The translations under genes and the position numbers were made by a program. A stretch of 64,000 bases of DNA from Vicinamibacteria bacterium (GTDB taxonomy: Bacteria; Acidobacteriota; Vicinamibacteria; Marinacidobacterales; Marinacidobacteraceae): positions 1,600,001 to 1,664,000 of the forward strand of contig CAXXLQ010000004.1 of NCBI GenBank assembly GCA_963668695.2. The letters are read 5' to 3'. The notes beneath the pieces were generated by a model. That model made no database searches. It had not been told where the DNA came from and saw only the letters and a list, made by a program, of their open reading frames with translations. Of the stretch, positions 1,968 to 63,100 are shown one piece after another. Within the stretch, counting starts at the first letter, position 1, and every line of letters starts with the position of its first letter.

Positions 1968-2190
1968 GGAGAACCCCCGCACACTTCGGTGCCGAAACCG
2001 AGAGCCCAGTGGCCCCGGTGCTATCGCTCCGGACCTACGCACGCCGCGGCCACCCTTGGGTGGGCTGGCGGTGTTGCCGGAAACGCATGGATGGCGGGAG
2101 CCGCCAAGTCGGACTCCTTCGGTCGGGTATATCAGATCGGAAGGATGGGCTTCAAATGGGCAAACGTGGCAACCTGACATCTGAACGGGT

Positions 2191-2535
2191 TAGCAGCCTG
2201 TGGCAAAACCCACGCGGCCCAGTTCTCCCGGTGGGGGCTCGGCCGGCGATCCATCCCGGCCAAACAACCGGTGATGAAACCCACGCGGCCCAGTTCTCCC
2301 GGTGGGGGCTCGGCCGGCGATCCATCCCGGCTGACCGCGTCGCTGCGCGCCGCTCATCGTTGCGTTTCGGTCGAAATACACCCGGGCCAGTTCTCCCGGT
2401 GGGGGCTCCTCCCTCACGCGCCTTGTCAGCCGGGCCCCCACCGGGAGGACTGGCCCCACCGGGAGAACTGGGCCTCGCCCCCACCGGGAGAACTGGCCAA
2501 CCTCGGCGCTCACCCGGGTTTCACCACAGGCTGCA
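2191..2535. mobile_element. MITE-like repeat element, copy 1 (duplicated 71-bp terminus, six 18-bp inserts)
   Basis: Ends tagcagcctgtgg...ccacaggctgca are inverted repeats. Internal modules (atcccggctga, ttgcgtttcggtcgaaatacac, ctccctcacgcgccttgtcagccgg) recur in about 12 intergenic regions. Confidence 0.8.
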
Positions 2536-2594
2536 GGGAACCCGTTCAGCCGATCTCGCCCCCTCCCGAGGTGAATCGTTACGCTGTCTCGATT

Positions 2595-9860: not shown

Positions 9861-10828
9861 GTGGCGCTCCCGCCCGGCGCGCTGACGACGCGCTGGCGGC
9901 GCCGGCGGTGGCCCTCACCATCGCCGGGTCGGATTCCGGGGGCGGCGCCGGCATCCAGGCCGACCTCAAGACCTTTGCGGCGCACGGGGTGTACGGCCTT
10001 TCCGCGATCACGGCGGTTACCGCCCAGAACACGGTGGCGGTGACCGGGGTCCAGGAAATCGAGCCCGCGATGGTCTCCGCCCAGATCGCGGCGGTCGTTT
10101 CCGATTTCCCGGTGGGCGCCGCGAAGACCGGGATGCTCTCCTCGGCGGCCATCATCCAGGCGGTGGCGAAGGCGGTGGATCGCCACGGTCTCCGGGTCGT
10201 CGTGGACCCGGTGATGGTCGCGAAGAGCGGCGACCGGCTCCTGCGGCCTGACGCCGTGGAGGCGCTCCGGGAAGAACTGTTGCCGCGGGGAGTGCTGCTC
10301 ACCCCGAACCTTCCCGAGGCGTCCGACCTCACCGGCCTTCCGGTAGCGGACGAAACGCAGATGCGCGCGGCCGGCGAAAAGCTGCTCGGCATGGGCGCGC
10401 GGGCGGTATTGATGAAGGGAGGCCACCTTCCGGGGGACGACATCGTGGACCTGTTCCTCGACGGCTGCCGTGTCGTTTCCTTCCGTGGACGACGGATCAG
10501 GACCCGCGCCACGCACGGAACCGGCTGCACCCTCTCGGCCGCGGTGGCGGCGAACCTCGCCCTCGGCCGGGAGATGCTCGAGGCAGTGAAGCGGGCGCGG
10601 GAATACCTGCGGACAGCGATGCTGCGGGCCGTTCCGCTCGGTTCGGGCCACGGGCCGCTCGGGCACCTTCCGGCTGCTGACGTGATGGAACGGTTCCGCA
10701 TTACCTCTCAGCCGGGGAACGCCGCCAGTTCTCCCGGCGGGGGCCTTCAGACCGGCATCGCCGTCTCCCTTGGTCGGAGCAGGCCGAACCCCAGCCTCGG
10801 AACCAATGGCCGGATTTCTCGCTCGTAG
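9857..10828 (+). CDS. thiD: Hydroxymethylpyrimidine/phosphomethylpyrimidine kinase
   Basis: Motifs ALTIAGSDSGGGAGIQADLKTF, VVDPVMVAKSG, THGTGCTLSAA, GSGHGP. The C-terminal tail runs into a REP-like repeat. Confidence 0.95.
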   Translation: MSGAPARRADDALAAPAVALTIAGSDSGGGAGIQADLKTFAAHGVYGLSAITAVTAQNTVAVTGVQEIEPAMVSAQIAAVVSDFPVGAAKTGMLSSAAIIQAVAKAVDRHGLRVVVDPVMVAKSGDRLLRPDAVEALREELLPRGVLLTPNLPEASDLTGLPVADETQMRAAGEKLLGMGARAVLMKGGHLPGDDIVDLFLDGCRVVSFRGRRIRTRATHGTGCTLSAAVAANLALGREMLEAVKRAREYLRTAMLRAVPLGSGHGPLGHLPAADVMERFRITSQPGNAASSPGGGLQTGIAVSLGRSRPNPSLGTNGRISRS

Positions 10829-14190: not shown

Positions 14191-14440
14191 AGTGACTCCC
14201 CTGAGGTAGCCGCGAAGGTCGGCCGAGCGGCCCACCACGGCGCCGACAGTAGTGGGACGGTACCGGAGAGGTCGGCTCCGGTCGGCGCACTTGGAGGAAA
14301 CGGGGGGTACCCCACCGCGTTCGACGGCAAGTGTTCGCCCTCTTGGACTCCTCTCAGGCACCAGGGAGTTGTCCGACCTTTGGGGGCAACTCCAGCCTCT
14401 TTCCGCCGTCGCCGGACAGAGGCGGTAGTGAAAGGCAAGC

Positions 14441-14680
14441 TTAGCAACCTGTGGTGAAACCCAGGCGGCGTTCGAGCGGCGATGCATCCCGGCTGAACCG
14501 CCCCCCCACCGGGAGAACTGGCGCTTTGCGGCGCTCGGCGTTGCGTTTCGGTCGAAATACACTCGGGCCAGTTCTCCCGGTGGGGGCTCCTCCCTCACGC
14601 GCCTTGTCAGCCGGACCCCCACCGGGAGAACTGGGCCTCGCCGCTCTCGGCGCTCACCCGGGTTCCACCACCGGCTGCTC
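14441..14680. mobile_element. MITE-like repeat element, copy 2
   Basis: ttagcaacctgtggtgaaacc...ccaccaccggctgct with the shared internal modules and three 18-bp inserts. Confidence 0.8.
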
Positions 14681-20791: not shown

Positions 20792-21040
20792 GGTCTGGGT
20801 TCGGGCGCCGGAGGAGTCTGATGAGTGGGGGAATCCCACGGCTGAAAGACACTGTATCCGGCCCCGGTGACAAATCACGCCACCTCTGGAGGGGTGGGTG
20901 GCGGAGGTCCACCCGGACCGAGGGTCAGAATCCCCGGGAGGACTTCCGCGAAACCGGCACGGTGCGTATTGCGCGTTTCGCTGCCGTCCGGGCAGCGGTG
21001 CCGGTCAGAGGCCCCACCGGGAGAACTGGCCGGCGCTCCT

Positions 21041-21138
21041 TGGCGGAAGCGTGTGGGAATCGAACCCACCATCCCGGGGACTAACCCGGAATCAACGGAT
21101 TTGAAGTCCGCGGAGGCCGCCAGACCCCATGCGCTTCC
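21041..21138 (-). tRNA. selC: tRNA-Sec (UCA)
   Basis: GGAAGCGC...GCGGAC-TTCAAA-TCCGT, long variable arm, GGTTCGATTCC, 8-bp acceptor stem, GCCA end; 98 nt. Confidence 0.93.
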
Positions 21139-22112: not shown

Positions 22113-22352
22113 TTAGCAGCCTGTGGTGAAACCCAGGCGGCCCAGTTCTCCCGGTGGGGGCTCGAGCGGCGATCCATCCCGGCTGAACCACTCCGCTTCG
22201 CTCCGTTCTGCGTTGCGTTTCGGTCGAAATACACCCGGGCCAGTTCTCCCGGTGGGGGCTCCTCCCTCACGCGCCTTGTCAGCCGGGCGCCTCGCCCCCA
22301 CCGGGAGAACTGGCCGCTCTCGGCGCTCACCCGGGTTCCACCACAGGCTGTC
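22113..22352. mobile_element. MITE-like repeat element, copy 3
   Basis: ttagcagcctgtggtgaaacc...ccaccacaggctgt; the right end abuts the dctM stop codon. Confidence 0.8.
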
Positions 22353-23646: not shown

Positions 23647-23907
23647 CTCAACAGCCGGTGGTGGAACCCGGGTGAGCGCCGAGCCCGGTGAGGCCCAGTT
23701 CTCCCGGTGGGGCCAGTTCTCCCGGTGGGGGCCCGGCTGACAAGGCGCGTGAGGGAGGAGCCCCCACCGGGAGAACTGGCCCGGGTGTATTTCGACCGAA
23801 ACGCAACGCAGAACGAAGCGAAGCAGAGTGGTTCATCCGGGATGGATCGCCGGGCGAGCTCCCACCGGGAGAACTGGACCGCTTGGGTTTCAGCACAGGC
23901 TGTTGAG
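23647..23907. mobile_element. MITE-like repeat element, copy 4 (inside the TRAP operon)
   Basis: ctcaacagccggtgg...cacaggctgttgag inverted ends; includes a tandem double 18-mer. Confidence 0.8.
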
Positions 23908-27566: not shown

Positions 27567-28113
27567 GGCAGCCGGTAGTGGAGCCCGGGTGAGCGCCGAG
27601 GCCGGCCAGTCCTCCCGGTGGGGGCGAGGCGCCCGGCTGACAAGGCGCGTGAGGGAGGAATACCGGGTGTATTTCGACCGAAACGCAACGATGAGCGGCG
27701 CGCAGCGACGCGGGTAACAGCCGGTGGTGGAACCCACGTGAGCGCCGAGGCCGGCGAGGCCCAGTTCTCCCGGTGGGGCCAGTTCTCCCGGTGGGGGCCC
27801 GGCTGACGAGGCGCGTGAGGGAGGAATACCGAGTGTATTTCGACCGAAGCGCAACGATGAGCGGCGCGCAGCGACGCGGTTCAACCGGGATGGATCGCCG
27901 GCCGAACGCCGCGCGGGTTTCATCACCGGCTGTTCAACCGGGATGGATCGCCGGCCGAACGCCGCGCGGGTTTCATCACCGGCTGTTTGGCCGGGATGGA
28001 TCGCCGGCCGAACGGCGCGCGGGTTTCATTACCGGCTGTTTGGCCGGGATGGATCGCCGGCCGAGCCCCCACCGGGAGAACTGGGCCGCGCGGGTTCCAC
28101 TACCGGCTGCTAG
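27567..28113. mobile_element. Nested MITE-like elements with a 4x 53-bp tandem terminus
   Basis: A second left end begins at about 27715. The terminal unit repeats at 27884, 27937, 27990 and 28043; only the last carries the 18-bp insert. Confidence 0.8.
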
Positions 28114-28729: not shown

Positions 28730-29510
28730 CTAGCAGCCGGTGGGCAAGGTCACGTACGCACCGAGGCCCCCACCGGGAGAACTGGCGGTGAGGCGCCCGG
28801 CTGACAAGGCGCGCGAGGGAGGAGCCCCCACCGGGAGAACTGGCCCGAGTGTATTTCGACCGAAGCGCAACGACGAGCAACGCGAAGCGCCAGTTCTCCC
28901 GGTGGGGGGGCGGTTCAGCCGGGATGCATCGCCGGTCGCTTCCGGAGCGGGGCGGGAGCACCGCGGAGACCCCGGAGCGGAAGGGACGGGGGACGGGGAG
29001 ACCCGGCTCCGATCCCTCTTGGCTCGGGCTTCCGGAGCGGGGCGGGAGCACCGCGGAGACCCCGGAGCGGAAGGGACGGGGGGCGGGGCCACCCGGCTCC
29101 GATCCCTCTTGGCTCGGGCTTCCGGAGCGGGGCGGGAGCACCGCGGAGACCCCGGAGCGGAAGGGACGGGGGGCGGGGCCACCCGACCCCGATCCCTCTT
29201 GGCTCGGGCTTCCGGAGCGGGGCGGGAGCACCGCGGAGACCCCGGAGCGGAAGGGACGGGGGGCGGGGCCACCCGACCCCGATCCCTCTTGGCTCGGGCT
29301 TCCGGAGCGGGGCGGGAGCACCGCGGAGACCCCGGAGCGGAAGGGACGGGGGGCGGGGCCACCCGACCCCGATCCCTCTTGGCTCGGGCTTCCGGAGCGG
29401 GGCGGGAGCACCGCGGAGACCCCGGAGCGGAAGGGACGGGGGGCGGGGCCACCCGACCACCATCCCTTCTGGCTCGGGAATGCCTCGTGACTTTGTTCAC
29501 GGGCTGCTTC
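28730..29510. mobile_element. MITE-like element containing a 90-bp tandem array
   Basis: Ends ctagcagccggtgggcaaggtcacg...cgtgactttgttcacgggctgct. Confidence 0.75.
28938..29477. repeat. Tandem array, 6 x 90 bp
   Basis: Unit gcttccggagcggggcgggagcaccgcggagaccccggagcggaagggacgggg...gatccctcttggctcgg starts at 28938, 29028, 29118, 29208, 29298 and 29388. Confidence 0.97.
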
Positions 29511-30850: not shown

Positions 30851-31215
30851 CTAATAGCCTGTGGATAAGGTGGCGTGAGCGCCGAGACTGGCCAGTCCTC
30901 CCGGTGGGGGCGAGGCGCCCGGCTGACAAGGCGGGCGAGGGAGGAATACGGCGTTCGCCGAGCAACCCCATGACGCCGCCGAACCTTAGCAGCCTGTGGT
31001 GAAACCCATGCGGCGTTCGCCCGGCGATGCATCCCGGCTGAACCACTCCGCTTTGCTCCGTTCTGCGTTGCGTTTCGGTCGAAATACACCCGGTATTCCT
31101 CCCTCACGCGCCTTGTCAGCCGGGCGCCTCACCGGGCTCGGCGCTCACCTGGGTTCCACCACCGGCTACTAGCAGCCTATGGACAAGATGACGCGGCGTT
31201 CGACTGGCGCTCGGC
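30851..31215. mobile_element. Composite MITE-like elements
   Basis: Three left-end motifs (taatagcctgtgga, ttagcagcctgtgg, ctagcagcctatgga). The central copy lacks all 18-bp inserts, so it is an 'empty' form. Confidence 0.75.
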
Positions 31216-33226: not shown

Positions 33227-33550
33227 GGAGCGCCGGCCGGTTCTCCCGGTAGGGGCCTTCAGACCGGCATCGCGGCCGAAGGCCGCGAAACTCACGTCCT
33301 ATTCACCCCTATTGCACTGACCTGGTCGGGGACGGCGAAACCCACGGCTGGCCATCCCCCGCAGGGGAGCGAAAGCCTCGCCATCGAGCCTCACGGTTAG
33401 CGACAGCGGAAGCGCGCAGTCCCACCACCCTCACGTTGCCGGGCGGGCCGACGCCCGCTTCTCTCTATCCAATTTGTTGAATCTTCCCGACGCCGATCCG
33501 TCACATTGGATAAGATGGTGGATCCCGTTGGTGCTCGCGCCGACCGGGAT

Positions 33551-34564
33551 CAACCAGCCCGTGAACAAAGTGAACCGGCATTCCCGAGCCAAGAGGGAGA
33601 GGGGCCGGGTGTCCCCGTCCCCGATCCCTCTCGCTCCGGGGTCTGCGCGGTGCTGGCGCCCCGCTCCGGAAGCCCGAGCCAGAAGGGATGGGGGTCGGCT
33701 TGCCCCGCCCCCCGTCCCTCTCGCTCCGGGGTCTGCGCGGTGCTGGCGCCCCGCTCCGGAAGCCCGAGTCAAGAGGGAGAGGGGCCGGGTGTCCCCGTCC
33801 TCCATCCCTCGTGCTCCGGGGTCTGCGCGGTGCTGGCGCCCCGCTCCGGAAGCCCGAGCCAGAAGGGATGGGGGTCGGCTATCGCCGCTCTCCATCCCTC
33901 GTGCTCCGGGGTCTGCGCGGTGCTGGCGCCCCGCTCCGGAAGCCCGAGCCAGAAGGGATGGGGGTCGGCTATCGCCGCTCTCCATCCCTCGTGCTCCGGG
34001 GTCTGCGCGGTGCTGGCGCCCCGCTCCGGAAGCCCGAGTCAAGAGGGAGAGGGGCCGGGTGTCCCCGTCCCCGATCCCTCTCGCTCCGGGGTCTGCGCGG
34101 TGCTGGCGCCCCGCTCCGGAAGCCCGAGCCAGAAGGGAGAGGGGCCGGGTGTCCCCGTCCCCGATCCCTCTCGCTCCGGGGTCTGCGCGGTGCTGGCGCC
34201 CCGCTCCGGAAGCCCGAGCCAAGAGGGAGAGGGGCCGGGTGTCCCCGTCCCCGATCCCTCTCGCTCCGGGGTCTGCGCGGTGCTGGCGCCCCGCTCCGGA
34301 AGCCCGAGCCAGAAGGGATGGGGGTCGGCTTGCCCCGCCCCCCGTCCCTTCCGCTCCGGGGTCTCCGCGGTGCTGGCGCCCCGCTCCGGAAGCGAGCGGC
34401 GATGCATCCCGGCTGAACCGCTCTGCTTCGCATCGCTCATCGTTGCGCTTCGGTCGAAATACGTCCGGGCCAGTTCTCCCGGTGGGGGCTCCTCCCTCAC
34501 GCGCCTTGTCAGCCGGGCGCCTCACCGCTCTCGGTGCTCGCCCCACCTTGTCCACGGACTGGTG
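33551..34564. mobile_element. MITE-like element containing a 90-bp tandem array (opposite orientation to 28730-29510)
   Basis: Ends caaccagcccgtgaacaaag...ccttgtccacggactggtg, with shared MITE modules at 34393-34545. Confidence 0.75.
33583..34392. repeat. Tandem array, 9 x 90 bp, with a variable hairpin segment
   Basis: Units start every 90 bp from 33583. The segment gctccggggtctgcgcggtgctggcgccccgctccggaagcccgag is near-constant; about 40 nt vary. Confidence 0.97.
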
Positions 34565-38924: not shown

Positions 38925-39161
38925 CAGCCTGTGGACAAAGTCACGCGGCCCAGTTCTCCCGGTGGGGGCTCGACCGGCGATGCATCCCGGCTGAACCGCG
39001 CCGCTTCGCGACGCTCTGCGTTGCACGTCGGTCGGAATACACTCGGGCCAGTTCTCCCGGTGGGGGCTCCTCCCTCGCGCGCCTTGTCAGCCGGGCGCCT
39101 CACCGCCAGTTCTCCCGGTGGGGGCCTCGGCGCTCACGTCACTTCATCCACAGGCTACTAA
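38921..39161. mobile_element. MITE-like repeat element overlapping the regulator stop codon
   Basis: ctagcagcctgtggacaaagtcacg...cgtcacttcatccacaggctacta. Confidence 0.8.
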
Positions 39162-39350
39162 CCCATGTTCCCGACCGCAAGAAGGACTGCCGCGGCCCTA
39201 ACAGCCTGTGGAGAAGGTCTGTCCGTGTCCGTCCGCGGCGCAGAGCGCCGCGGGGGAGGGGCGTGGGGAGGGGTTTCCCCTCCCCACCGAAAACGATGGC
39301 GCGGGCCCCCACCGGGAGAACTGGCGCGGAGCGATCCGGGACATCACCCC

Positions 39351-41549
39351 GTGGGGAAAGCGCCCCGCACGCACGAGAACCGGCAGATTCGGCGCGCCTC
39401 TCGCCTTGGACACCGTGCGGGGTGCTTTTTCTGCGGGCTGCTGCTGCTGGCGAGCCTGCCGGTGATGGCCAGGGCCGCGCAGGAGGAACTCAGCCGCAAC
39501 GAGCAGATCGAACGTCTGCGGGAAGACCACCGCAAGTGGCTCGAACAAGACGTGGCGTACATCATCACCGACCGCGAGGAGGACGTATTCCTCAGCCTCG
39601 AGACCCTCGAAGAGCGGACTCGATTCATCGAGGTCTTCTGGGAAAAACGCGATCCTTACCCGGCGACCCCCGAGAACGAGTTCAAGGACGAGCACTACAG
39701 CCGGATCGAATACGCAAACAAGTACCTCGGCAGGGACACCTTCCGCGAAGGCTGGCGGACGGACCGGGGCCGCTACTACATCCTGCTCGGCGAGCCCCGC
39801 GAGCGGCATGCCTTCGACGGCTACAACGAAGTGGTCTCGAGCGAACTCTGGTTCTACCAGGGCGACGTGTCGAAAGGATTGCCGTCCTTTTTCTATCTCG
39901 TCTTCTTCAAGCGCCACGACATCGGGGAGTACCGCCTCTATCACCCGGTGGTGGACGGGCCGCAGTCGCTGGTTCGAGGCCAGTACACCCAGGGAGGCGG
40001 GCCGCAGGGCAATGTCCAGGCCTACAAGACCCTGCAACGGATTGACGCCGAACTCGCGAACGCCTCCCTCTCCCTGGATCCTTCGGAACCGGGGGACTGG
40101 ACGAGCGGCAGGGCCTCGCTGGCGAGCGACCTGCTGATCGCGCGGGTCGAAGATTCGCCCCGGCGCGCCATCCGCACCGACTACGCGGACGCGTGGCTCC
40201 GTTACCGCGATCGGGTCTCGGCCGACTATTCGTTCAACTTTGTCCCAAGTCGCGGGGTGTTCGGAATCACCGGGGGACCTCTCGGTACTCCCTTTGTTCA
40301 CTACAGCGTCGAGATCGATCCTCAGAACTTCACTCTCGAGACCGACGAGGACCGGACGAAGTTCTACACGACCCTCGATATTTCGGTCGAAGCGGTGAAC
40401 GAGGACGATGTGACGGTGCTGGCGATCGACCGCCCGGCCTATCTGGAGCTCACCAGGACTCAGGTCGAAGGCATTCAGGGTTCGCCGTTCGCGTACCAGG
40501 ACAGCGTGCCGCTACTACCCGGCACGTACGACCTGAGTGTGATCGTTCGAAACCGCGCCGCGGCCCAGTTCACGGTTGCCGAGACCACGATTGACACCAC
40601 GCGTCTGGGCGCCGCGGCTGGTTCGTCCCGAATTGCCGGCATCATCGCCGGGTTCGACGGCACCGATCTGGTGCAGGCGCCGAGCCCCGAAGCGATTCGC
40701 ACGTTTCAGGTCGGAAACGTCCGGATTCAGCCGGCCGCGGACGGCCTCTTCGCCCTCGGGAACACCCTCTACGCCTTCGCGCACGTGATGGAAGCCGGGG
40801 ACGGTCAGCAAATGCGCTTCCAGGTGCTTGCCGATCTCTCCGGAAGTCCGGACGGAGAACCCCTCACCGAGCTGGTGGTGGCGGTTCCCGGCCCGGGAGC
40901 CGTCCTCGGCCGTTTGCCGCTGGATCTTGGGGTCGGCGGAAGCTACTGGCTGCGCGGGCGGCTCGAGGATGAAGCGGGGACCCTGCTCGATCAGCATGAT
41001 CGGCGGATCCAGGTTTCCCCCCGGGCGGGTGTCCCGCGCGCCGGCTTCGTTTTGCGGCGCGGTTTCAACCCGGAAACACCAGGGCTGCTGGCGCTCGTTC
41101 GCGGCGATCAGTACCTGACGCTTTCCCGCTTCGAGGAGGCGCTCCGCGAGTACGAACTCGCGGTGGCCTCCGGGAATCCGCAGTTGCCGGCCGCCCGTTG
41201 GAAGCTCGCCCACGGCTACGTGCGAACCAGTCGGGTGGCCGAAGCAGCAGCCCTGCTCGAGCCTATGGTGGACCAGTTCCCCGAGGTCTTCGAGGTAGCC
41301 AGCGGGATGGGTTTCGTTCGCTACTTCCAGGGCCGCTACGAGGAGAGCGTGGCTCATCTGGAGCACGCCCTCGCACTGCGCACCCCGGGATTCGGGTTGT
41401 TGAACGTCCTCGGAGACGCCTACGCTGAGGTCGGACGGCTCGAGGAGGCGCGCGCCACCTTCGGGCGCTCTCTGGAGTTGAATCCGGAGCAGCCGTTCCT
41501 TCGGGAGCGCCTCGCCGAGATCAGCGCGCCGTCTCCACCTGGCGAGTAG
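39351..41549 (+). CDS. GWxTD-domain protein with C-terminal TPRs
   Basis: KWLEQDVAYII, FWEKRDP.P.TPENEF..EHY.RI.YAN, GWRTDRGRYYILLGEP. Start uncertain (between 39165 and 39464). Confidence 0.9.
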   Translation: MGKAPRTHENRQIRRASRLGHRAGCFFCGLLLLASLPVMARAAQEELSRNEQIERLREDHRKWLEQDVAYIITDREEDVFLSLETLEERTRFIEVFWEKRDPYPATPENEFKDEHYSRIEYANKYLGRDTFREGWRTDRGRYYILLGEPRERHAFDGYNEVVSSELWFYQGDVSKGLPSFFYLVFFKRHDIGEYRLYHPVVDGPQSLVRGQYTQGGGPQGNVQAYKTLQRIDAELANASLSLDPSEPGDWTSGRASLASDLLIARVEDSPRRAIRTDYADAWLRYRDRVSADYSFNFVPSRGVFGITGGPLGTPFVHYSVEIDPQNFTLETDEDRTKFYTTLDISVEAVNEDDVTVLAIDRPAYLELTRTQVEGIQGSPFAYQDSVPLLPGTYDLSVIVRNRAAAQFTVAETTIDTTRLGAAAGSSRIAGIIAGFDGTDLVQAPSPEAIRTFQVGNVRIQPAADGLFALGNTLYAFAHVMEAGDGQQMRFQVLADLSGSPDGEPLTELVVAVPGPGAVLGRLPLDLGVGGSYWLRGRLEDEAGTLLDQHDRRIQVSPRAGVPRAGFVLRRGFNPETPGLLALVRGDQYLTLSRFEEALREYELAVASGNPQLPAARWKLAHGYVRTSRVAEAAALLEPMVDQFPEVFEVASGMGFVRYFQGRYEESVAHLEHALALRTPGFGLLNVLGDAYAEVGRLEEARATFGRSLELNPEQPFLRERLAEISAPSPPGE

Positions 41550-41625
41550 CGGATAGTTCGCGTCACCGCCTCCCGCCCTTCCGGCGGGTCACGTCATTCG
41601 TCCGCTGGCGGCATCCGCGGCTGCA

Positions 41626-44463
41626 TCAGAACCGCAGCCTCACCCCCACCCGCGCCACCCGCGGGGGAAGAATCCCGACCACCGCGCCGAAGGAATCGTC
41701 GCGGGATCCCTCGCCCACCACGTTGTTCAGGTTCAGCGCGTTGAACACATCGAGATACGTCGAGAACTCGGCCGCTCCCGGCAGGTCCAGGCGGTGGTCC
41801 AGGCGGAGATCCAGCAGCGGCACTGCCGGCGACCGGGCGGTACCTGGGGGTTCGACGATGACCTCGGTGCTGCCCTGGGGAAGCGGTTCTCCCTCCAGCG
41901 TTTCGGTGAAGATCACCGACCGGTAGTTGGGCCAGCCCGAGTGCGCCCGGAAGGAACCCGCTACCGCGAAGCCCCAGGGAAGTCGGTAGCTGCCGGATAT
42001 CCGGGCGATGAAAGGGCGATCCCAAAAGGTGCGGCCTTCGTGCAGGTCGCCGTGGTTGGGGTTGTTGAGGAGCGAACCGGGGAATCCGGTGCCCTCGTCG
42101 ATCTGGTCGCCGGGCCCCGGCAGCCAGCCGATCGAGCGGCTTACGGTGACGGAGGCGAGAAGTTGCCAACCCGCAGCGTAGCGCTTCCGGGCCTCCAGGA
42201 TGAGCCCCCGATAGCTGGACCCGATGCCCGGGTTGTACAACCGGAAGCGGCTCTGCCCGAGGGTGGCGGGATCCTGGAGCCAGAGGTTGATCGGGACGTC
42301 ATCGCCGCTACCCCGGACGAAATCGCGGCCCGGATCGAGGTGGGGAATCGGATGCCAGGCGCTCTCCGGGACGCCGATGTCGGTGTCTTCGATGAGGTCG
42401 CGCTCACGGCGCAGGATGCCGGTGAGGCCAAGGGTGATCTCGTAGGGAATCTCGCGATGGATCCCCAGGGTCAGTTCGTCGGTGACGGGTTGTCGGAGGT
42501 CGGGATCGACTTCGTTCCGCACGGGGATGAAGACGCTGAGGGGTCGGGTGAAGTCCACCTCGCCTTCGTCCACCAGGGCATTGAAGTTCCGGTCGTTGAA
42601 GCGGAATTTCGCGGACGCCCGAGCGTTGGGGTTTCCGTACGCAGGAACGCTCAGACCCAGTTGGTGAAGGTAACGCCCGGCGCTCAGCCGGATCTGAGTG
42701 CGGCCGTCGTCGGTGAGCTGGTAGTTGACGCCGAAGCGCGGAGCTACCCCCACCCATGAGACGAGGGACGATTCGCCGGTCGTCTGCCGGGGGATCCCGA
42801 AGTTTCGGAAGGCCTCGCTCCACGGTCCCGGTTCGTTCTCCTGGTCCGGGTATCCGGCCCCCCACCAGTCGGCGCGCAGTCCGAACTCCAGGACCATTCG
42901 TCCGCGGACGAGGCTGTCCTGGGCGAAGAGTCCGACGTTCCGGGTGAAGTTCCGGACGGCCACCGGATCGCTGTAGAGCGTGACCTCGATGGGCCGCACG
43001 CGGTCGTGGATATAGACGATCCCGCCGTGCAGGTCATGGGTGGTGCGTCCCGGGTTCACGGTGGTCTCGAAGCCCACCTTGAACTCGTTGGTGCCGCCGA
43101 AGAGGCCGTCCCGGAAGAGGGTGGCGGTAGCGCTCCCCTGCCACCGGTCGCGTTCGTAGATGGTGTTGGTGCCCGAACCTCCGTACCAGATGCCGGTGTT
43201 CAACTCCCAGCGTGAGACTTCGGGTTCCCGGTCGGGCTGCTGTCCGTACGGGAAGTAGAGATCCAGGCGGCTGGCGCGGGCCTCCACGAGCAGCGATTCG
43301 CCGAATACGCCGGACCAGGAGATCTGTCCCAGTGCGGTGACCGAGTCCTGGTGGAATGTTGTTTGCGGTCGGGGACGGAAAAGACTCGCCCCCCGGTAGG
43401 GCCGGTACTTTCCGTTTCGGTAGAAGAAAACCCCGATCTCGTGTCCCTCGGCCACCCGCACGCTGCCCCTGGCCAGCAGGTTGTCGAGTTCCGTGAGGTC
43501 CACACCAGGTTCCCCATCCTCGAAGAAGAACCCCGGGAGGAAGGGTTCCACCCGGAACCGGGAATAGTTGAAGTAGAACCAGGCGCGGTCACGCCGCAGG
43601 GGACCGCCGAGTTCCGCGCTCCCGTCGAAGAGCGCCTTGAGGCGGTTGGCCTGTCCGACCCCCCGGGCGCGGAGCGCGTCGTCGAGGTTCTGCGCCTGGA
43701 AGCGTTCGTGCTCATAGAAGAAGCTGCCGCTACCGGCGAACCGGTTGGTGCCTCTCCGGGTGACGATGTTCAAGAACACGCCCGGGGTCTGGATTTCGGC
43801 GCGGTGCCCCGCCGTCGAAACCTCTACTTCTTCGAAGCTGTCGAAGGAGTAGTAGGCGATGCTCGCTCCCATCGCCGCGGGGTCTGTCACGTTGACGCCG
43901 TTCAGGTAGTACTGGTTCTGCGTCCATGCCGAGCCCGCCGCCGAAAAGAGGGACTGCTGGCCGCTCTCGGCTCCCCCCACGTTGATCTTGGACATCATGA
44001 TGCCCGGGGTCTGTTCCAGAACGCTCCAGATGTCTCTGGTGTTGGGCAGATCCTCGAGCACTGGCCGGTCGACCGTTTCCCGGACTCCGCTGCCGCGACG
44101 GTCGAGGGGCCGCCGGGAGACCGCCGCGACGCGCTCGGTGATGCCGGCGAGCCCCAGTTGGAGTCGGACCTCGATGATGGAACCGGCGTCCACCACCACT
44201 TCGGCGGGTGGCGAGTCCTCGAATCCGGGGTGCCTCGCCGTGATGCTCCAGGCGCCGGGTTGGAGGCCGGCGAAGCCGAACCGCCCCGATGGCCCCGCGG
44301 CCTGTTCGCGCCGTATCCCACGTCCGACGAGTACCAGCGATACCCGGGCGCCGGGCAGGACACCTCCGGTAGCGTCGAGCACGACGCCGTCCACTCCGCC
44401 GGTCGGTTGCGCGACACCGGGCGCGGGAAAGGCCACGAGCAACGCGCTGAGGGCAGCCGCCAA
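41626..44463 (-). CDS. TonB-dependent receptor (Oar-like)
   Basis: GVVLDATGGVLPGA, LPNTRDIW, YYLNGVNVTD, FDSFEEV, DVFNALN...PPRVARVGVRLRF. Start uncertain; nearest is TTG 44463, just downstream of tRNA-Ser. Confidence 0.9.
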   Translation of the reverse strand: MAAALSALLVAFPAPGVAQPTGGVDGVVLDATGGVLPGARVSLVLVGRGIRREQAAGPSGRFGFAGLQPGAWSITARHPGFEDSPPAEVVVDAGSIIEVRLQLGLAGITERVAAVSRRPLDRRGSGVRETVDRPVLEDLPNTRDIWSVLEQTPGIMMSKINVGGAESGQQSLFSAAGSAWTQNQYYLNGVNVTDPAAMGASIAYYSFDSFEEVEVSTAGHRAEIQTPGVFLNIVTRRGTNRFAGSGSFFYEHERFQAQNLDDALRARGVGQANRLKALFDGSAELGGPLRRDRAWFYFNYSRFRVEPFLPGFFFEDGEPGVDLTELDNLLARGSVRVAEGHEIGVFFYRNGKYRPYRGASLFRPRPQTTFHQDSVTALGQISWSGVFGESLLVEARASRLDLYFPYGQQPDREPEVSRWELNTGIWYGGSGTNTIYERDRWQGSATATLFRDGLFGGTNEFKVGFETTVNPGRTTHDLHGGIVYIHDRVRPIEVTLYSDPVAVRNFTRNVGLFAQDSLVRGRMVLEFGLRADWWGAGYPDQENEPGPWSEAFRNFGIPRQTTGESSLVSWVGVAPRFGVNYQLTDDGRTQIRLSAGRYLHQLGLSVPAYGNPNARASAKFRFNDRNFNALVDEGEVDFTRPLSVFIPVRNEVDPDLRQPVTDELTLGIHREIPYEITLGLTGILRRERDLIEDTDIGVPESAWHPIPHLDPGRDFVRGSGDDVPINLWLQDPATLGQSRFRLYNPGIGSSYRGLILEARKRYAAGWQLLASVTVSRSIGWLPGPGDQIDEGTGFPGSLLNNPNHGDLHEGRTFWDRPFIARISGSYRLPWGFAVAGSFRAHSGWPNYRSVIFTETLEGEPLPQGSTEVIVEPPGTARSPAVPLLDLRLDHRLDLPGAAEFSTYLDVFNALNLNNVVGEGSRDDSFGAVVGILPPRVARVGVRLRF

Positions 44464-45902: not shown

Positions 45903-46429
45903 CTCGGTCGAGGGGTCCGCTGACGGGGCCTCCAACCGGCACTACGTCGCACCGTGGGTTTCATTTGTGGCATGAGGCCCCGTTAGCGGACCCCCCGGCG
46001 CTTCGCGCCGGAATCGCAAATCCCTCCGGGATTTGCGATTCGAGCTGTCTTTTTGTGAAAGGGGGGGTGCCCCCCTTTCACACTTTCCCCCCGGTCAGGC
46101 GGGCAGCGAACGGAGTTCGCTGCCATCTGTTTCTTCGCGTTTGGCAGTACGCGTGTGATGACGCAAAGGCAAGGGAACGCCGACCTCCTGGTCGGCACAG
46201 CCCGCCGAAGGCGGGCGGGAGCGCGTACGGCTGATCAGGCAGATGGCGCGTAGACGGGGAAGAACGCGTAGTGCCGATCGGGAAAAAGCGCGGGGACGGC
46301 TTGGAACGCCGACCTCCGGGCAGTTCTCCCGGTGGGGCCCGGCATCGCGCGGGAGCGCGAAACCAGCGCGGATTACGCGGCGCTCTACCGACGTGAGCGT
46401 CGCACCCTCTCACAATCCCGAATAGTGCG

Positions 46430-53794: not shown

Positions 53795-53998
53795 TGGCAG
53801 CCGGTGGTGGAACCCGGGTGAGCGCCGAGGCCGGCGAGGCGCCCGGCTGACAAGGCGCGTGAGGGAGGAGCCCCCACCGGGAGGACTGGCCCGGGTGTAT
53901 TTCGACCGAAACGCAACGAAGAGCGGAGCGAAGCGGAGTGGTTCAGCCGGGATGGATCGCCGGTCGAACGCCGCCTGGGTTTCACCACCGGCTGCTAA
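53795..53998. mobile_element. MITE-like repeat element
   Basis: ggcagccggtggtggaacc...ggtttcaccaccggctgcta. Confidence 0.8.
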
Positions 53999-55189: not shown

Positions 55190-55481
55190 GGCATTCTCCA
55201 CCCGCTCGCGGTGGCGGCGCACTCGCCTGGCGCGGGCTAGACGCGCAAATTGTCGTCGCGGACACCAATTCTCCCGTCAAATCGACGGGAGCACCATAAA
55301 TTCTCCTCTGGCCGAGGAATCACCCCTCGGGGTTGGAAGGGCGCGCGGCCCTCACGTCGGCAGATCGCAGCGTCGTCGACGCTGGTTTCGCGCTCCCGCG
55401 CGTGCCGGCCCCCACCGGGAGAACTGGCCAGAGGTCTGGCGTTCCCTTGCCTGCGCGCCATTCCGGCGGCGCGCGCCCGGC

Positions 55482-57065
<1,584 letters not shown>

Positions 57066-62825: not shown

Positions 62826-63100
62826 TTGGCGATCATTCGGCTGCCTAACAGCCGGTGGCGAAACCCGGGCGGCGTTCGCCCGGCGATCCATCCCGGCAAA
62901 ACAGCCTGTAGTGGAACCCGCACGGCGTTCGGCCGGCGATCCATCCCGGCTGAACCGCGTCGCTTCGCGCCGCTCATCGTTACGTTTCGGTCGAAATACA
63001 CGCGGGCCAGTTCTCCCGGTGGGGGCTCCTCCCTCACGCGCCTTGTCAGCCGGGCGCCTCACCGGGCTCGGCGCTCACCCGGGTTCCACCACAGGCTATT
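62826..63100. mobile_element. MITE-like element with a duplicated 53-bp terminus, overlapping the dprA 3' end
   Basis: taacagccggtgg...ccacaggctatta. Confidence 0.8.

Follow-up and report, generated by a model that had tools for sequence, protein, structure and literature searches.

The window analysed here, a 64,000-nucleotide stretch of the genome designated G000, carries 37 copies of one 18-bp sequence, of which 29 are exact, seven have one mismatch and one has two. The copies lie on both strands, in agreement with the approximately 37 copies in both orientations that the original prediction had counted. The chance expectation, estimated from 100 dinucleotide-preserving shuffles of the window, is a mean of 0.01 copies and a maximum of one. 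An Rfam search of the window returned tRNAs only. The features of the window are as follows, with sites in the host MITE family named by their position.

2219..2236, minus: exact 18-mer at MITE site 26, within an additional 53-bp end module
2290..2307, minus: exact 18-mer at MITE site 26
2387..2404, minus: exact 18-mer at MITE site 106
2436..2471, plus: head-to-tail double at MITE site 137, with the GAGGA variant as its leading copy
2479..2496, plus: exact 18-mer at MITE site 143
10725..10742, minus: 18-mer with one mismatch in a REP-like hairpin repeat (family 2)
14504..14521, plus: exact 18-mer at MITE site 60
14568..14585, minus: exact 18-mer at MITE site 106
14617..14634, plus: single 18-mer at MITE site 137, with a ggac left flank
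21012..21029, plus: 18-mer in a REP-like hairpin repeat, 15 bp from a tRNA-Sec gene; the repeat is absent there in the close relative G041
22142..22159, minus: exact 18-mer at MITE site 26
22240..22257, minus: exact 18-mer at MITE site 106
22296..22313, plus: exact 18-mer at MITE site 143
23695..23730, minus: head-to-tail double at MITE site 137 (MITE reversed); the whole MITE is absent in G041
23762..23779, plus: exact 18-mer at MITE site 106 (MITE reversed)
23860..23877, plus: 18-mer with one mismatch at MITE site 26 (MITE reversed)
27606..27623, minus: GAGGA variant of the 18-mer at MITE site 143 (MITE reversed)
27761..27796, minus: head-to-tail double at MITE site 137 (MITE reversed)
27884..28113, plus: four tandem MITE end modules of about 53 bp, with site 26 empty in three and filled in the fourth (28067-28084)
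28768..28785, plus: exact 18-mer at MITE site 146 (MITE reversed)
28826..28843, plus: exact 18-mer at MITE site 106 (MITE reversed)
28890..28907, minus: exact 18-mer at MITE site 60 (MITE reversed)
30892..30909, minus: GAGGA variant of the 18-mer at MITE site 143, in a truncated MITE
33237..33254, minus: variant with two mismatches (CCCTACC...AACCGG type) in a REP-like hairpin repeat, recurring in other genera
34470..34487, minus: exact 18-mer at MITE site 106
38950..38967, minus: exact 18-mer at MITE site 26
39048..39065, minus: exact 18-mer at MITE site 106
39106..39123, minus: exact 18-mer at MITE site 146
39307..39324, plus: 18-mer in a non-MITE intergenic context that has two copies genome-wide
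46320..46337, minus: 18-mer with one mismatch in a REP-like hairpin repeat
53872..53889, plus: GAGGA variant of the 18-mer at MITE site 106 (MITE reversed)
55410..55427, plus: exact 18-mer in a REP-like hairpin repeat
56924..56941, plus: exact 18-mer at MITE site 60; site 106 of that MITE is empty
63007..63024, minus: exact 18-mer at MITE site 106; after removal of the 18-mer this MITE is the 181-bp reference

Copy number and form of the 18-mer

Across the whole 4.1-Mb genome 1631 copies of the 18-mer were found. A logo of 1630 of them has sharp ends, with about 1.9 bits inside positions -2 to +20 and less than 1 bit outside, and the consensus of the inserted unit is G-C-[CCCCACCGGGAGAACTGG]-C/G, that is, a core of 18 nt that reaches about 20-21 nt with its flanks. 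The 18-mer is not palindromic, and direct reading of its sequence revealed that it has no terminal inverted repeats, that its length is divisible by three and that none of its six reading frames contains a stop codon. Its principal variants are few and the same ones recur in several genera; the two that are named here are the GAGGA variant and the CCCTACC...AACCGG type, which has two mismatches and also occurs in other genera. Tandem copies make up 151 adjacent pairs with a period of exactly 18, and there are up to five copies at one site; the head-to-tail doubles reported in the window at 2436/2454, 23695/23713 and 27761/27779 are all present. The earlier proposal that the core can fold (as CCGG-GAGAA-CTGG) was not borne out as an energetically distinctive property: as single-stranded DNA with the usual flanks the 18-mer gave folding energies of -1.9 and -2.3 kcal/mol, no better than those of shuffled sequences (z of 0.78 and 0.41, with 158/200 and 127/200 shuffles folding at least as well). 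Orientation in G000 is balanced per 200-kb bin for all copies, for non-MITE copies and for the MITE itself, and a replication-strand bias was rejected from these bins and from the totals in a second genome, G018 (108 plus versus 112 minus).

Filled and empty sites in the host repeats

Eighty percent of the copies (1298 of 1631) reside inside one family of TA-inserting MITEs of about 181 bp, which upholds the earlier claim that many copies were multiplied passively with the MITE. They occupy about six fixed positions and map to 20 position-and-strand classes, seven of which dominate (26-, 60+, 106-, 137+, 143+, 144+ and 54+). Among 367 near-full MITEs there are 42 occupancy patterns. The empty MITE consensus is predicted to form a long hairpin (-46.3 kcal/mol as DNA), and no clear rule emerged for the positions of the 18-mer sites on this fold. 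The 333 copies remaining outside the MITE reference, whose flanks were clustered as had been recommended, fell into 31 clusters with many unrelated contexts; 176 of them are in REP-like hairpins, 92 are in MITE tandem end modules that alignment to the MITE reference missed, and 19 are singletons. In other genera the 18-mer occupies different sites in different hosts (15 of 20 sampled copies in G018 lie outside the MITE), and at least a dozen unrelated flank contexts were found over several genera.

Filled and empty alleles occur together at the locus at 27884-28113, which is as described previously: of its four units of about 53 bp, three are empty (ggccga-ac-gc/gg) and the fourth reads ggccga-gc-(18-mer)-gccgcg. 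The further pairs that had been listed (27651 versus 23751, 62950 versus 56913, and 63057 versus 39098) were also seen. Genome-wide, the interval between anchors outside the 18-mer at site 106 was 14 nt in 297 and 32 nt in 299 of the 622 MITE copies examined, and of 521 copies at site 26, 235 had an interval of 15 nt and 266 one of 33 nt. The difference between filled and empty states is usually 18 bp net, with 1-5 flanking target bases replaced, and net gains of +19 or +17 occur at site 143 and in several REP-like contexts. Target duplication was absent at all sites compared, both in the MITE and in the gene insertions described below, as the original prediction had stated, and in the listed pairs flanking bases are replaced instead. 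This "co-conversion" of flanks proved to be real and general, being found at every MITE site and at all three gene insertions.

Occupancy is only loosely tied to the backbone of the host copies. When 200 MITE copies were compared with a nearest neighbour differing at no more than 1 of 70 backbone columns, 66-91 were discordant at each of sites 26, 106, 137 and 143, and 17 at the rarer site 60. Nearest-neighbour concordance was 0.548 versus 0.504 expected at site 106 and 0.559 versus 0.536 at site 137, and only at sites 26 and 60 did it clearly exceed every one of 500 permutations; backbone similarity as a predictor of occupancy was rejected, being barely above chance at sites 106 and 137. Presence and absence of the 18-mer are exchanged between host copies with hardly any link to the remaining host sequence, and very short-patch exchange between MITE copies, as opposed to fresh insertion, may account for much of the variation between filled and empty states among them. 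At site 137 the ggac flank belongs to single copies in 83 of 88 cases, and the gggc flank accompanies 136 doubles and 364 empty sites. These flank haplotypes suggest few founding events that were spread by MITE copying, and therefore fewer truly independent insertions.

Gene insertions, turnover and distribution

In-frame additions of six residues to conserved proteins, which the original prediction had proposed as a check, were found in three single-copy conserved genes, and no MITE sequence surrounds the 18-mer in any of them. An AcrB-type/RND pump gene has the additional residues PHRENW in G000 and G001 only; the insert is absent from 19 of 21 aligned orthologues drawn from the genus, family and order, outgroup families included, and in G000 it is present as two copies, on contigs C4 and C1. 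Mfd of G012 has six extra residues that are absent from 13 of 15 orthologues, with a shortened form at the same place in G010, and CoaBC of G010 has six that are absent from 13 of 14. The three genes read the 18-mer in three different frames, and in each of them the nearest empty allele differs at 2-4 bases adjoining the insert. Judged from the aligned orthologues, the empty state is ancestral at the three genes and the events are insertions, not deletions. Since these in-frame copies have ancestral empty orthologues, the 18-mer inserts independently of host repeats; together with the many unrelated contexts they substantiate the earlier view of the 18-mer as a discrete, independently inserted unit, and contradict the alternative that all copies share a single flank context. 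The 18-mer is written de novo into many unrelated places without target duplication, and is then multiplied passively by its hosts, the active TA-inserting MITE and the REP-like hairpin repeats.

Differences in occupancy within closely related sequence, another point raised at the outset, were found inside the assembly itself. Contigs C3 and C1 match stretches of C4 at 97.6-99.9% identity, and they differ from it in occupancy at site 106 (twice) and at site 137, the aligned blocks containing 13 versus 16 and 50 versus 51 copies. The C3/C4 difference at site 137 is accompanied by a nearby base change, which would fit a conversion tract from another MITE copy. In addition, copies in the same orientation recombine, deleting the intervening DNA.

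Among 151 genomes of the class, 22 contain the exact motif, and these belong to a single family, where it is present in 21 of the 27 other genomes and conserved exactly across five genera. Copy number among relatives ranges from 1 to 1566, a comparison that assembly quality confounds. In four public runs from four studies, contigs lie on the MITE stretches and break at the MITEs, and loose contig ends with part of the 18-mer occur in two of them (X10 and X1). Some contig joints in the public runs skip 27761-27796 and are not assignable to that locus. A viral contig collection contained one exact match overall, which is probably near chance level. A literature search for the motif returned no paper, apart from a 15-mer match in a zebrafish paper, and no papers were found on repeats of this lineage.

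Mechanism, precedents and significance

The agents suggested in the original prediction did not materialize in the genome, for which marker-gene completeness is 91.7%. Its 4.1 Mb gave no matches to reverse transcriptase (RVT_1, PF00078) or to RAYT/HUH transposase (Y1_Tnp, PF01797), with hits in 3 and 6 of the 14 control genomes, respectively, and neither a donor locus for the 18-mer nor a template molecule was found. Several other candidates were rejected. The single IS110 gene belongs to an element inserted in a REP-like hairpin and has no tie to the ends of the 18-mer, and the single Cas1 match adjoins a CRISPR array (43 repeats, C4:3280875-3283511, the only array found in a crude k-mer scan) whose repeat is unrelated to it. 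An origin from a stable RNA was likewise discarded, the best matches having six mismatches in 16S rRNA, 23S rRNA and RNase P RNA (tRNA and tmRNA were also compared). A match with three mismatches in a 98-nt "tRNA-Val" lies in an ARAGORN false positive inside an apparent enoyl-CoA hydratase gene, with no Rfam match.

Our preferred reading, which we consider probable if not strongly so, is that the 18-mer is a discrete insertion module of about 20-21 nt, spread by short-patch templated copying at hairpin tips. The insertion step would be template-directed and would take place on, or immediately next to, the tip of a short GC-rich hairpin or palindrome, presumably with another copy of the 18-mer as the template, in the way that repair or template switching proceeds at hairpin tips; neither reverse transcription nor a HUH/RAYT transposase would be involved. 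The RNA or single-stranded-DNA templating put forward in the original prediction is likewise conjectural. Weakly consistent with the preferred reading, a perfect stem of at least 4 bp whose loop overlaps the replaced bases was found at 10 of the 12 empty target sites, compared with 39.5% of 5000 positions drawn at random; the test was post hoc, half of its sites are in hairpin-rich repeats, and the other two sites lack this arrangement. The RND insertion lies exactly at the centre of a 10-bp palindrome, and MITE site 137 is the centre of GGCGCC.

Copying driven by microhomology should carry variable donor flank, but only G-C plus one base is seen in unrelated targets, so a unit of defined length fits better. 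Passive copying also does not explain why the 18-mer is exact throughout the family when host MITE homologues are only 75-79% identical between genera, and this conservation, left unexplained by a repair model, points to a sequence-specific factor.

A rival explanation is a dedicated, sequence-specific enzyme encoded elsewhere (an unrecognised transposase, recombinase or nuclease-ligase, perhaps with a small guide RNA) that would recognise the ends of the 18-mer and move or copy it as a fixed-length unit, the MITE and REP-like hairpins being its preferred targets. This we regard as possible but doubtful. The sharp ends and fixed length argue for it, as do the three flanking bases (2+1) that alone enter unrelated targets, the exact tandem period in 151 pairs and arrays of up to five copies without flanking microhomology that would give that period, and an identical 18-mer over five genera with diverging hosts. 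However, these targeted searches of the genome brought up no candidate gene: RVT_1 and Y1_Tnp gave no matches where controls were hit, the IS110 gene shows no tie to the 18-mer ends, and the CRISPR repeat beside Cas1 is unrelated; moreover, terminal inverted repeats are lacking in the 18-mer, and it folds no better than shuffled sequence. A related suggestion, which we offer tentatively and at no greater strength, is that some sequence-specific system (a protein, possibly RNA-guided, and conserved in the family) writes a fixed patch of about 20 nt into hairpin tips, with no target duplication, reverse transcriptase or HUH transposase. If true, it would constitute a new class of mobile DNA, with a unit below the size of every element that a transposase is known to recognise, and its mechanism might be shared with the cyanobacterial SDR elements.

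The other explanations account for less. That the 18-mer is an immobile module of the MITE and REP repeats, its states arising by deletion, recombination or gene conversion only, would suit the 80% of copies in one MITE, the few founders at site 137, the conversion-like C3/C4 difference and the deletions between copies. It is nevertheless very improbable given the insertions in three single-copy genes without MITE (empty in 19, 13 and 13 orthologues) and at least a dozen unrelated contexts in several genera, and it is silent on how the 18-mer first arrived at six or more MITE positions in both orientations. Slightly less improbable, although still unlikely, is a selected functional motif (a protein-binding site, uptake signal or RNA signal) that owes its abundance to selection and not to insertion. 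Exact family-wide conservation, freedom from stops in six frames with a length that is a multiple of three and three frames used in three genes, and the few main variants recurring across genera are what such a motif should display, but the copies arise as +18-bp insertions and not as point changes, the hand check of 14 non-MITE copies in G000 for spanning open frames gave a gene only for the RND insertion (C4 and C1), orientation is unbiased along the chromosome, and a copy number of 1 to 1566 among relatives, even with assembly quality as a confounder, is hard to reconcile with an essential signal. Function alongside mobility could explain the conservation. An adapter or assembly artefact, which the original prediction had named as a concern, is extremely improbable, as the motif is in 21 of 27 other family genomes from many independent assemblies, lies in frame in conserved genes, and is accompanied by coverage of MITE stretches in four public runs and by the partial copies at loose ends in X10 and X1.

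The closest precedent for the 18-mer is the SDR elements of Nostoc, which are of the same general kind. The small dispersed repeats SDR1-8, which Elhai et al. (2008, Genome Res 18:1484) are said to have described, occur in Nostoc punctiforme and in further Nostocaceae. The SDR unit measures 21-27 nt; at 18 bp our element is just outside that range, and it resembles SDRs in its size of about 20 nt with flanks, its high copy number and its nesting in hosts with filled and empty versions. Both are very short, high-copy, dispersed, nested in other repeats, lineage-restricted and, apparently, precisely inserted. They differ in that SDRs belong to Nostocaceae and the 18-mer to the class Vicinamibacteria of the Acidobacteriota, and in that the 18-mer has no significant hairpin, replaces 1-5 target bases and provides three polarised in-frame gene insertions. 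Passages of one paper describe SDR5 as inserting precisely between the third and fourth bases of the HIP1 palindrome and treat this precision as only partly explained (PMC4390886), and extracts of two others state that no SDR was found outside Nostocaceae (PMC5861425) and that such small repeats can occur in tandem (PMC2884548). With its tandem arrays and its palindrome-centred targets at the RND site and site 137, the 18-mer agrees with these passages (PMC4390886, PMC2884548). REP/REPIN elements, which an extract of Bertels and Rainey (2011, PMC3116915) describes as mobilised by RAYT (Y1/HUH) transposases, resemble the 18-mer, as far as that extract describes them, in being short and extragenic, present in hundreds to thousands of copies, associated with hairpin DNA and often clustered. 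In contrast, the 18-mer is not palindromic, does not form characteristic inverted doublets as a unit and occurs in a genome in which no Y1_Tnp gene was found; REP-like hairpins act here as its hosts and are distinct from the 18-mer itself. MITEs, here the IS630-type family, share with it a non-coding nature, high copy number and a presence that varies between close relatives, whereas the 18-mer lacks terminal inverted repeats and target duplication, is ten times smaller and is carried inside the MITE.

The process most resembled by the preferred templated-patch mechanism is short-patch double illegitimate recombination (SPDIR), in which, as reportedly described by Harms et al. in 2016 (PNAS), a short ectopic sequence replaces a few target bases at microhomologies with no dedicated mobile-element enzyme. 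Patches made by SPDIR are infrequent and differ from one another in sequence and length, whereas the 18-mer is fixed, has fixed ends, recurs and is conserved across genera. HIP1 of cyanobacteria and the DNA uptake sequences of Neisseria and Haemophilus, over-represented short motifs that biased processes maintain, originate through substitution and are frequent within genes. They share with the 18-mer a short and exact sequence, an abundance of about a thousand copies per genome on the two strands and restriction to a lineage, but the 18-mer arises as an 18-bp insertion, and only one gene (in two copies) was hit among the hand-checked copies.

The 18-mer is among the smallest mobile-looking DNA units known, and its hosts are sponge-associated Acidobacteria. 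Our literature search found mobile-looking repeats of about 20 nt otherwise detailed only for Nostocaceae, making this a second, independent case in a distant phylum. The lineage offers good study material in the form of several assemblies of related species in one to three contigs and near-identical contigs that differ in occupancy, and the three polarised gene insertions, together with the regularities of the 2+18+1 patch, base replacement and putative hairpin-tip targets, make the mechanism testable by comparative genomics. For the bacteria themselves, the element drives deletions inside host repeats and adds six residues to proteins without breaking them, and it contributes to the load of repeats by which short-read assemblies of these sponge symbionts become fragmented.

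The 18-mer and its host repeats

Pattern search of the window recovered 37 copies of CCCCACCGGGAGAACTGG on both strands (29 exact, seven with one mismatch and one with two), as counted in the original prediction, against a mean of 0.01 matches in shuffled versions of the window. In the assembly of the source genome (G000; 4.10 Mb in four contigs, 67% G+C) there were 1631 copies with at most two mismatches, of which 1288 are exact, 278 differ at one base and 65 at two, and the 18-mer read backwards had zero matches at the same tolerance. A logo of 1630 copies showed ~2 bits across the 18 positions, with the exception of position 13 (A/G 88/11); on the left only the adjoining G and C were conserved (88% and 86%), on the right C/G and then C, and the signal decayed further out. 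Conservation therefore ends just outside the 18 positions, giving a unit of ~20–21 nt with sharp ends. Direct reading of the 18-mer found stop codons in none of its six frames. The earlier claim that its core can fold did not hold up, in that the 18-mer with its usual flanks folded no better than shuffled sequence, and the same result ruled it out as a REP-type palindrome. In the relative G018 (loci L154, L156, L162 and L171) the 18-mer is often followed directly by a partial second copy, ccgggagaaccgg, which suggests that its inner 13 bases can repeat by themselves.

The principal host is the TA-inserting hairpin MITE. With one 181-bp copy (window 62.9 kb, its own 18-mer cut out) as reference, and all 18-mers excised from the genome beforehand, ~650–700 MITE copies were found in G000. 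The collection and clustering of all genomic copies placed 1298 of the 1631 18-mers inside the MITE, at few fixed positions with one orientation each, as follows:

Copies of the 18-mer by position (strand) in the 181-bp empty MITE reference
Position 26 (-): 273 copies
Position 54 (+): 9 copies
Position 60 (+): 64 copies
Position 106 (-): 321 copies
Position 137 (+): 387 copies
Position 143/144 (+): 210 copies
Position 146/147 (-): 12 copies
Other positions: a few copies

The other 333 formed 31 flank clusters, the largest being a family of REP-like hairpins (176) and the second a tandem 53-bp MITE end module (92), with 19 singletons. Given the 1298 copies that map into the MITE, most copies are the result of passive multiplication, as had been proposed. 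A tRNA-Sec gene at window 21045-21138 (Rfam 69.7 bits) adjoins a hairpin repeat with an 18-mer.

The MITE is recently active. In the relative G041, which is 93–97% identical across the window, most of the window's MITE loci are empty or different, and MITEs occur at places that are MITE-free in the window. At window 2188-2537, 14439-14679, 23649-23906 and 38925-39445, and at the G041 place matching window 5380, one genome has a whole MITE that the other lacks, with TA/TTA-type junctions. Long arrays whose tandem units measure ~100 bp (gggcttccggagcggggcgggagcaccgcggagacc...), joined to truncated MITE ends, occupy window 28950-29480 and 33560-34400, and both are missing at the matching G041 places. 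At window 41531-41626, 94 bp correspond to 1273 bp in G041, where the extra DNA resembles a coding gene.

Insertion with replacement of flanking bases

The four ~53-bp units at window 27884-28113 had been read as three empty and one filled, and this was confirmed: the fourth carries the 18-mer at 28067-28084, with gc rather than ac as the two adjacent bases. The other filled and empty pairs described earlier, and the three head-to-tail doubles, were likewise all found in the window. Intervals measured between anchors outside the 18-mer differed by 18 nt at the two MITE sites listed below:

Interval lengths at two MITE sites
Site 26: 521 copies examined; empty, 15 nt in 235; filled, 33 nt in 266; other lengths, 20
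Site 106: 622 copies examined; empty, 14 nt in 297; filled, 32 nt in 299; other lengths, 26

At every MITE site the bases beside the insert differed between filled and empty forms, for example gttcg versus [18]gctcg at site 26 and ggt-att versus ggg[18]gct at site 106. Read along the strand of the 18-mer, a patch G-C-[18]-C/G stands in place of 1–3 target bases, and the net gain is thus 18. Site 143 and several REP-like contexts deviate with +19 or +17, and in other species flanks of the C-C...T type mark a minority of contexts.

The search of relatives for empty alleles, including in-frame additions of six amino acids, found the 18-mer in three conserved genes, identified by Pfam matches:

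G000:C4:394435, with a duplicate on contig C1: AcrB/RND transporter (PF00873, E 7e-241); insert in G000 and its closest relative G001; adds PHRENW
G012: Mfd (CarD_TRCF_RID and UvrB_inter domains); adds PPPGEL, in a frame unlike that of the RND insert
G010: CoaBC (Flavoprotein and DFP domains); 18-mer read from the opposite strand

With the G033 locus left out of all alignments, the insert was absent from 19 of 21 aligned RND orthologues (drawn from the same genus, from further genera in the family and from two outside families), from 13 of 15 Mfd orthologues and from 13 of 14 CoaBC orthologues. The nearest empty and filled alleles read gagccc-gcg-cgggat and gagccc-ggc-[18]-cgggat in the RND gene, where the two bases replaced form the midpoint of a 10-bp palindrome, CCCGCGCGGG; in CoaBC gac became a-[18]-gg, and in Mfd four bases beside the insert differ. 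These three events are insertions, not deletions. As they have no surrounding MITE sequence, a clear direction and the same flank replacement as elsewhere, the patch belongs to the insertion process and not to MITE subfamilies. In Mfd, G010 (L208) has a shortened, mutated 18-mer of 16 nt exactly where G012 (L206) has the full insert, and G007, nearer to G012 over this segment (92% versus 88% identity), is without one; either the target was struck twice or the insertion is older than it appears.

Occupancy and its recent change

Among 367 near-full MITEs, 95 had no insert and 42 occupancy patterns were seen, including nearly every combination of the five main sites. When 200 MITEs were compared with nearest neighbours differing at no more than 1 of 70 backbone columns, 66–91 had a state other than their neighbour's at sites 26, 106, 137 and 143 individually, as did 17 at site 60, which is rarer. 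There is almost no linkage between occupancy and the remaining MITE sequence. The immediate flanks, unlike the backbone, are tightly tied to the filled or empty state: at site 137, the only site of tandem 18-mer arrays in near-full MITEs, 83 of 88 copies flanked by ggac hold exactly one 18-mer, and those flanked by gggc hold none (364), two (136), one (6), three (2) or five (1). In our reading, each site was founded by few insertions, which then spread as MITEs transposed and as copies exchanged very short patches; a possible alternative is recurrent fresh insertion whose outcome is deterministic. The truly independent insertion events number a dozen or two, not hundreds.

The smaller contigs probably represent strain variants that were assembled together with the chromosome (contamination figure of the assembly, 9.3%), and they allow strain-level comparisons within one assembly. 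Contig C1 (144 kb) is 99.3–99.9% identical to C4:304-421 kb and contig C3 (31 kb) 97.6–99.7% identical to C4:3.505-3.538 Mb, and these two were taken as strain variants or duplicates; contig C2 is 80–92% identical to C4:3.409-3.414 Mb. Aligned blocks held 13 versus 16 18-mers in the C3/C4 comparison and 50 versus 51 in the C1/C4 comparison. Both units of a tandem MITE pair at C3:19.5 kb are empty at site 106, and both are filled at the matching place in C4. Both alleles carry a rare variant 12 nt to the right, so that any conversion from an ordinary MITE would have had a very short tract on that side. At site 137, C4 has one extra 18-mer relative to C3 within the same MITE (flank ggac, with a second base change nearby) and a double where C1 has a single. 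One deletion in C1 relative to C4 spans from one 18-mer to another in the same orientation. The contigs of public sequencing runs end at these repeats.

Candidate mechanisms, distribution and SDR elements

No counterpart of the reverse transcriptase or HUH/RAYT enzyme proposed earlier was found in G000, where RVT_1 and Y1_Tnp gave zero matches, both having matched in control genomes. The sole IS110-family gene was rejected as the mover; its element (G000:C4:482399-483700, L203) itself sits inside a REP-like hairpin (gccgaccggaggtc / ggcgttccc) and has no tie to the 18-mer ends. Members of this family are reported to use such targets. Also rejected as a source was the sole Cas1/CRISPR locus (G000:C4:3280875-3284739), whose adjoining array of ~43 repeats has an unrelated repeat that includes GGTCCATCCCCGCGCGTGCGGGG. 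The 18-mer had no match in rRNA, RNase P RNA, tRNA or tmRNA; a 98-nt tRNA-Val called by ARAGORN (G000:C4:2525348-2525445; L236 248-345) was a false positive, lying within a stretch that reads as an enoyl-CoA hydratase gene and to which Rfam assigned nothing. Orientation had no relation to chromosome position in G000. An apparent strand bias along the chromosome among the matches listed by pattern searches, where reverse-strand entries end before forward-strand ones, was absent from the total counts.

Because none of these leads held, we prefer a process without a dedicated enzyme, in which an existing 18-mer would be the source of a short patch copied into a hairpin tip that is broken or has stalled. 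Among described processes, short-patch double illegitimate recombination comes nearest. At 10 of 12 sites with a known empty allele, there is overlap between the replaced bases and the loop or first 3'-arm bases of a hairpin, against 39.5% of 5000 random genome positions; this test (perfect stem of at least 4 bp) was post hoc and hairpin-rich repeats account for half of the sites, and hairpin-tip targeting is accordingly a lead, not a result. Insertion by a sequence-specific factor, which we regard as rather unlikely, would better fit three features, namely ends that do not vary, tandem arrays with an 18-bp period and conservation throughout the family.

Allowing one mismatch, the 18-mer was present in 21 of the 41 genomes searched. 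Of the 24 family members among them 20 had it, and of 16 genomes representing two further families of the order none did; copies per genome ranged from 1 to 1566, counts that are confounded by assembly quality. In a sample of 151 genomes of the class, exact copies occurred in 22, every one in the single family (21 of 27 besides G000), and in 0 of 123 genomes from 18 other families. The host is among the sponge- and coral-associated Vicinamibacteria, and the records of relatives name Candidatus Marinacidobacterium. In G019 the 18-mer lies mostly at a MITE position rare in G000; in G018, 15 of 20 sampled copies are outside the MITE in other hairpin repeats, and one MITE site shows tt replaced by gc-[18]. 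The MITE homologues of these two genera are only 75–79% identical to the G000 consensus, and approximately half of the G019 copies of the 18-mer are exact, judging from exact versus one-mismatch counts. Conservation of the 18-mer against a diverged MITE is the feature least explained by the preferred repair-type mechanism.

In the literature collection searched, no paper was found that contains the motif or deals with repeats of this lineage. The closest known things are the SDR elements of Nostocaceae. The overlap of 18-mer sites with hairpins agrees with the insertion of SDR5 within the HIP1 palindrome, as described by Elhai (PMC4390886). Going by papers that cite the original SDR description, the two are alike in being small, nested in other repeats, confined to one lineage and found in tandem, and they may also share precise insertion close to palindromes. 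Relative to the SDR elements as those papers portray them, the 18-mer belongs to another phylum, is shorter and not palindromic, and is set apart by its replacement of target bases, its polarised gene insertions and its strain-level polymorphism.
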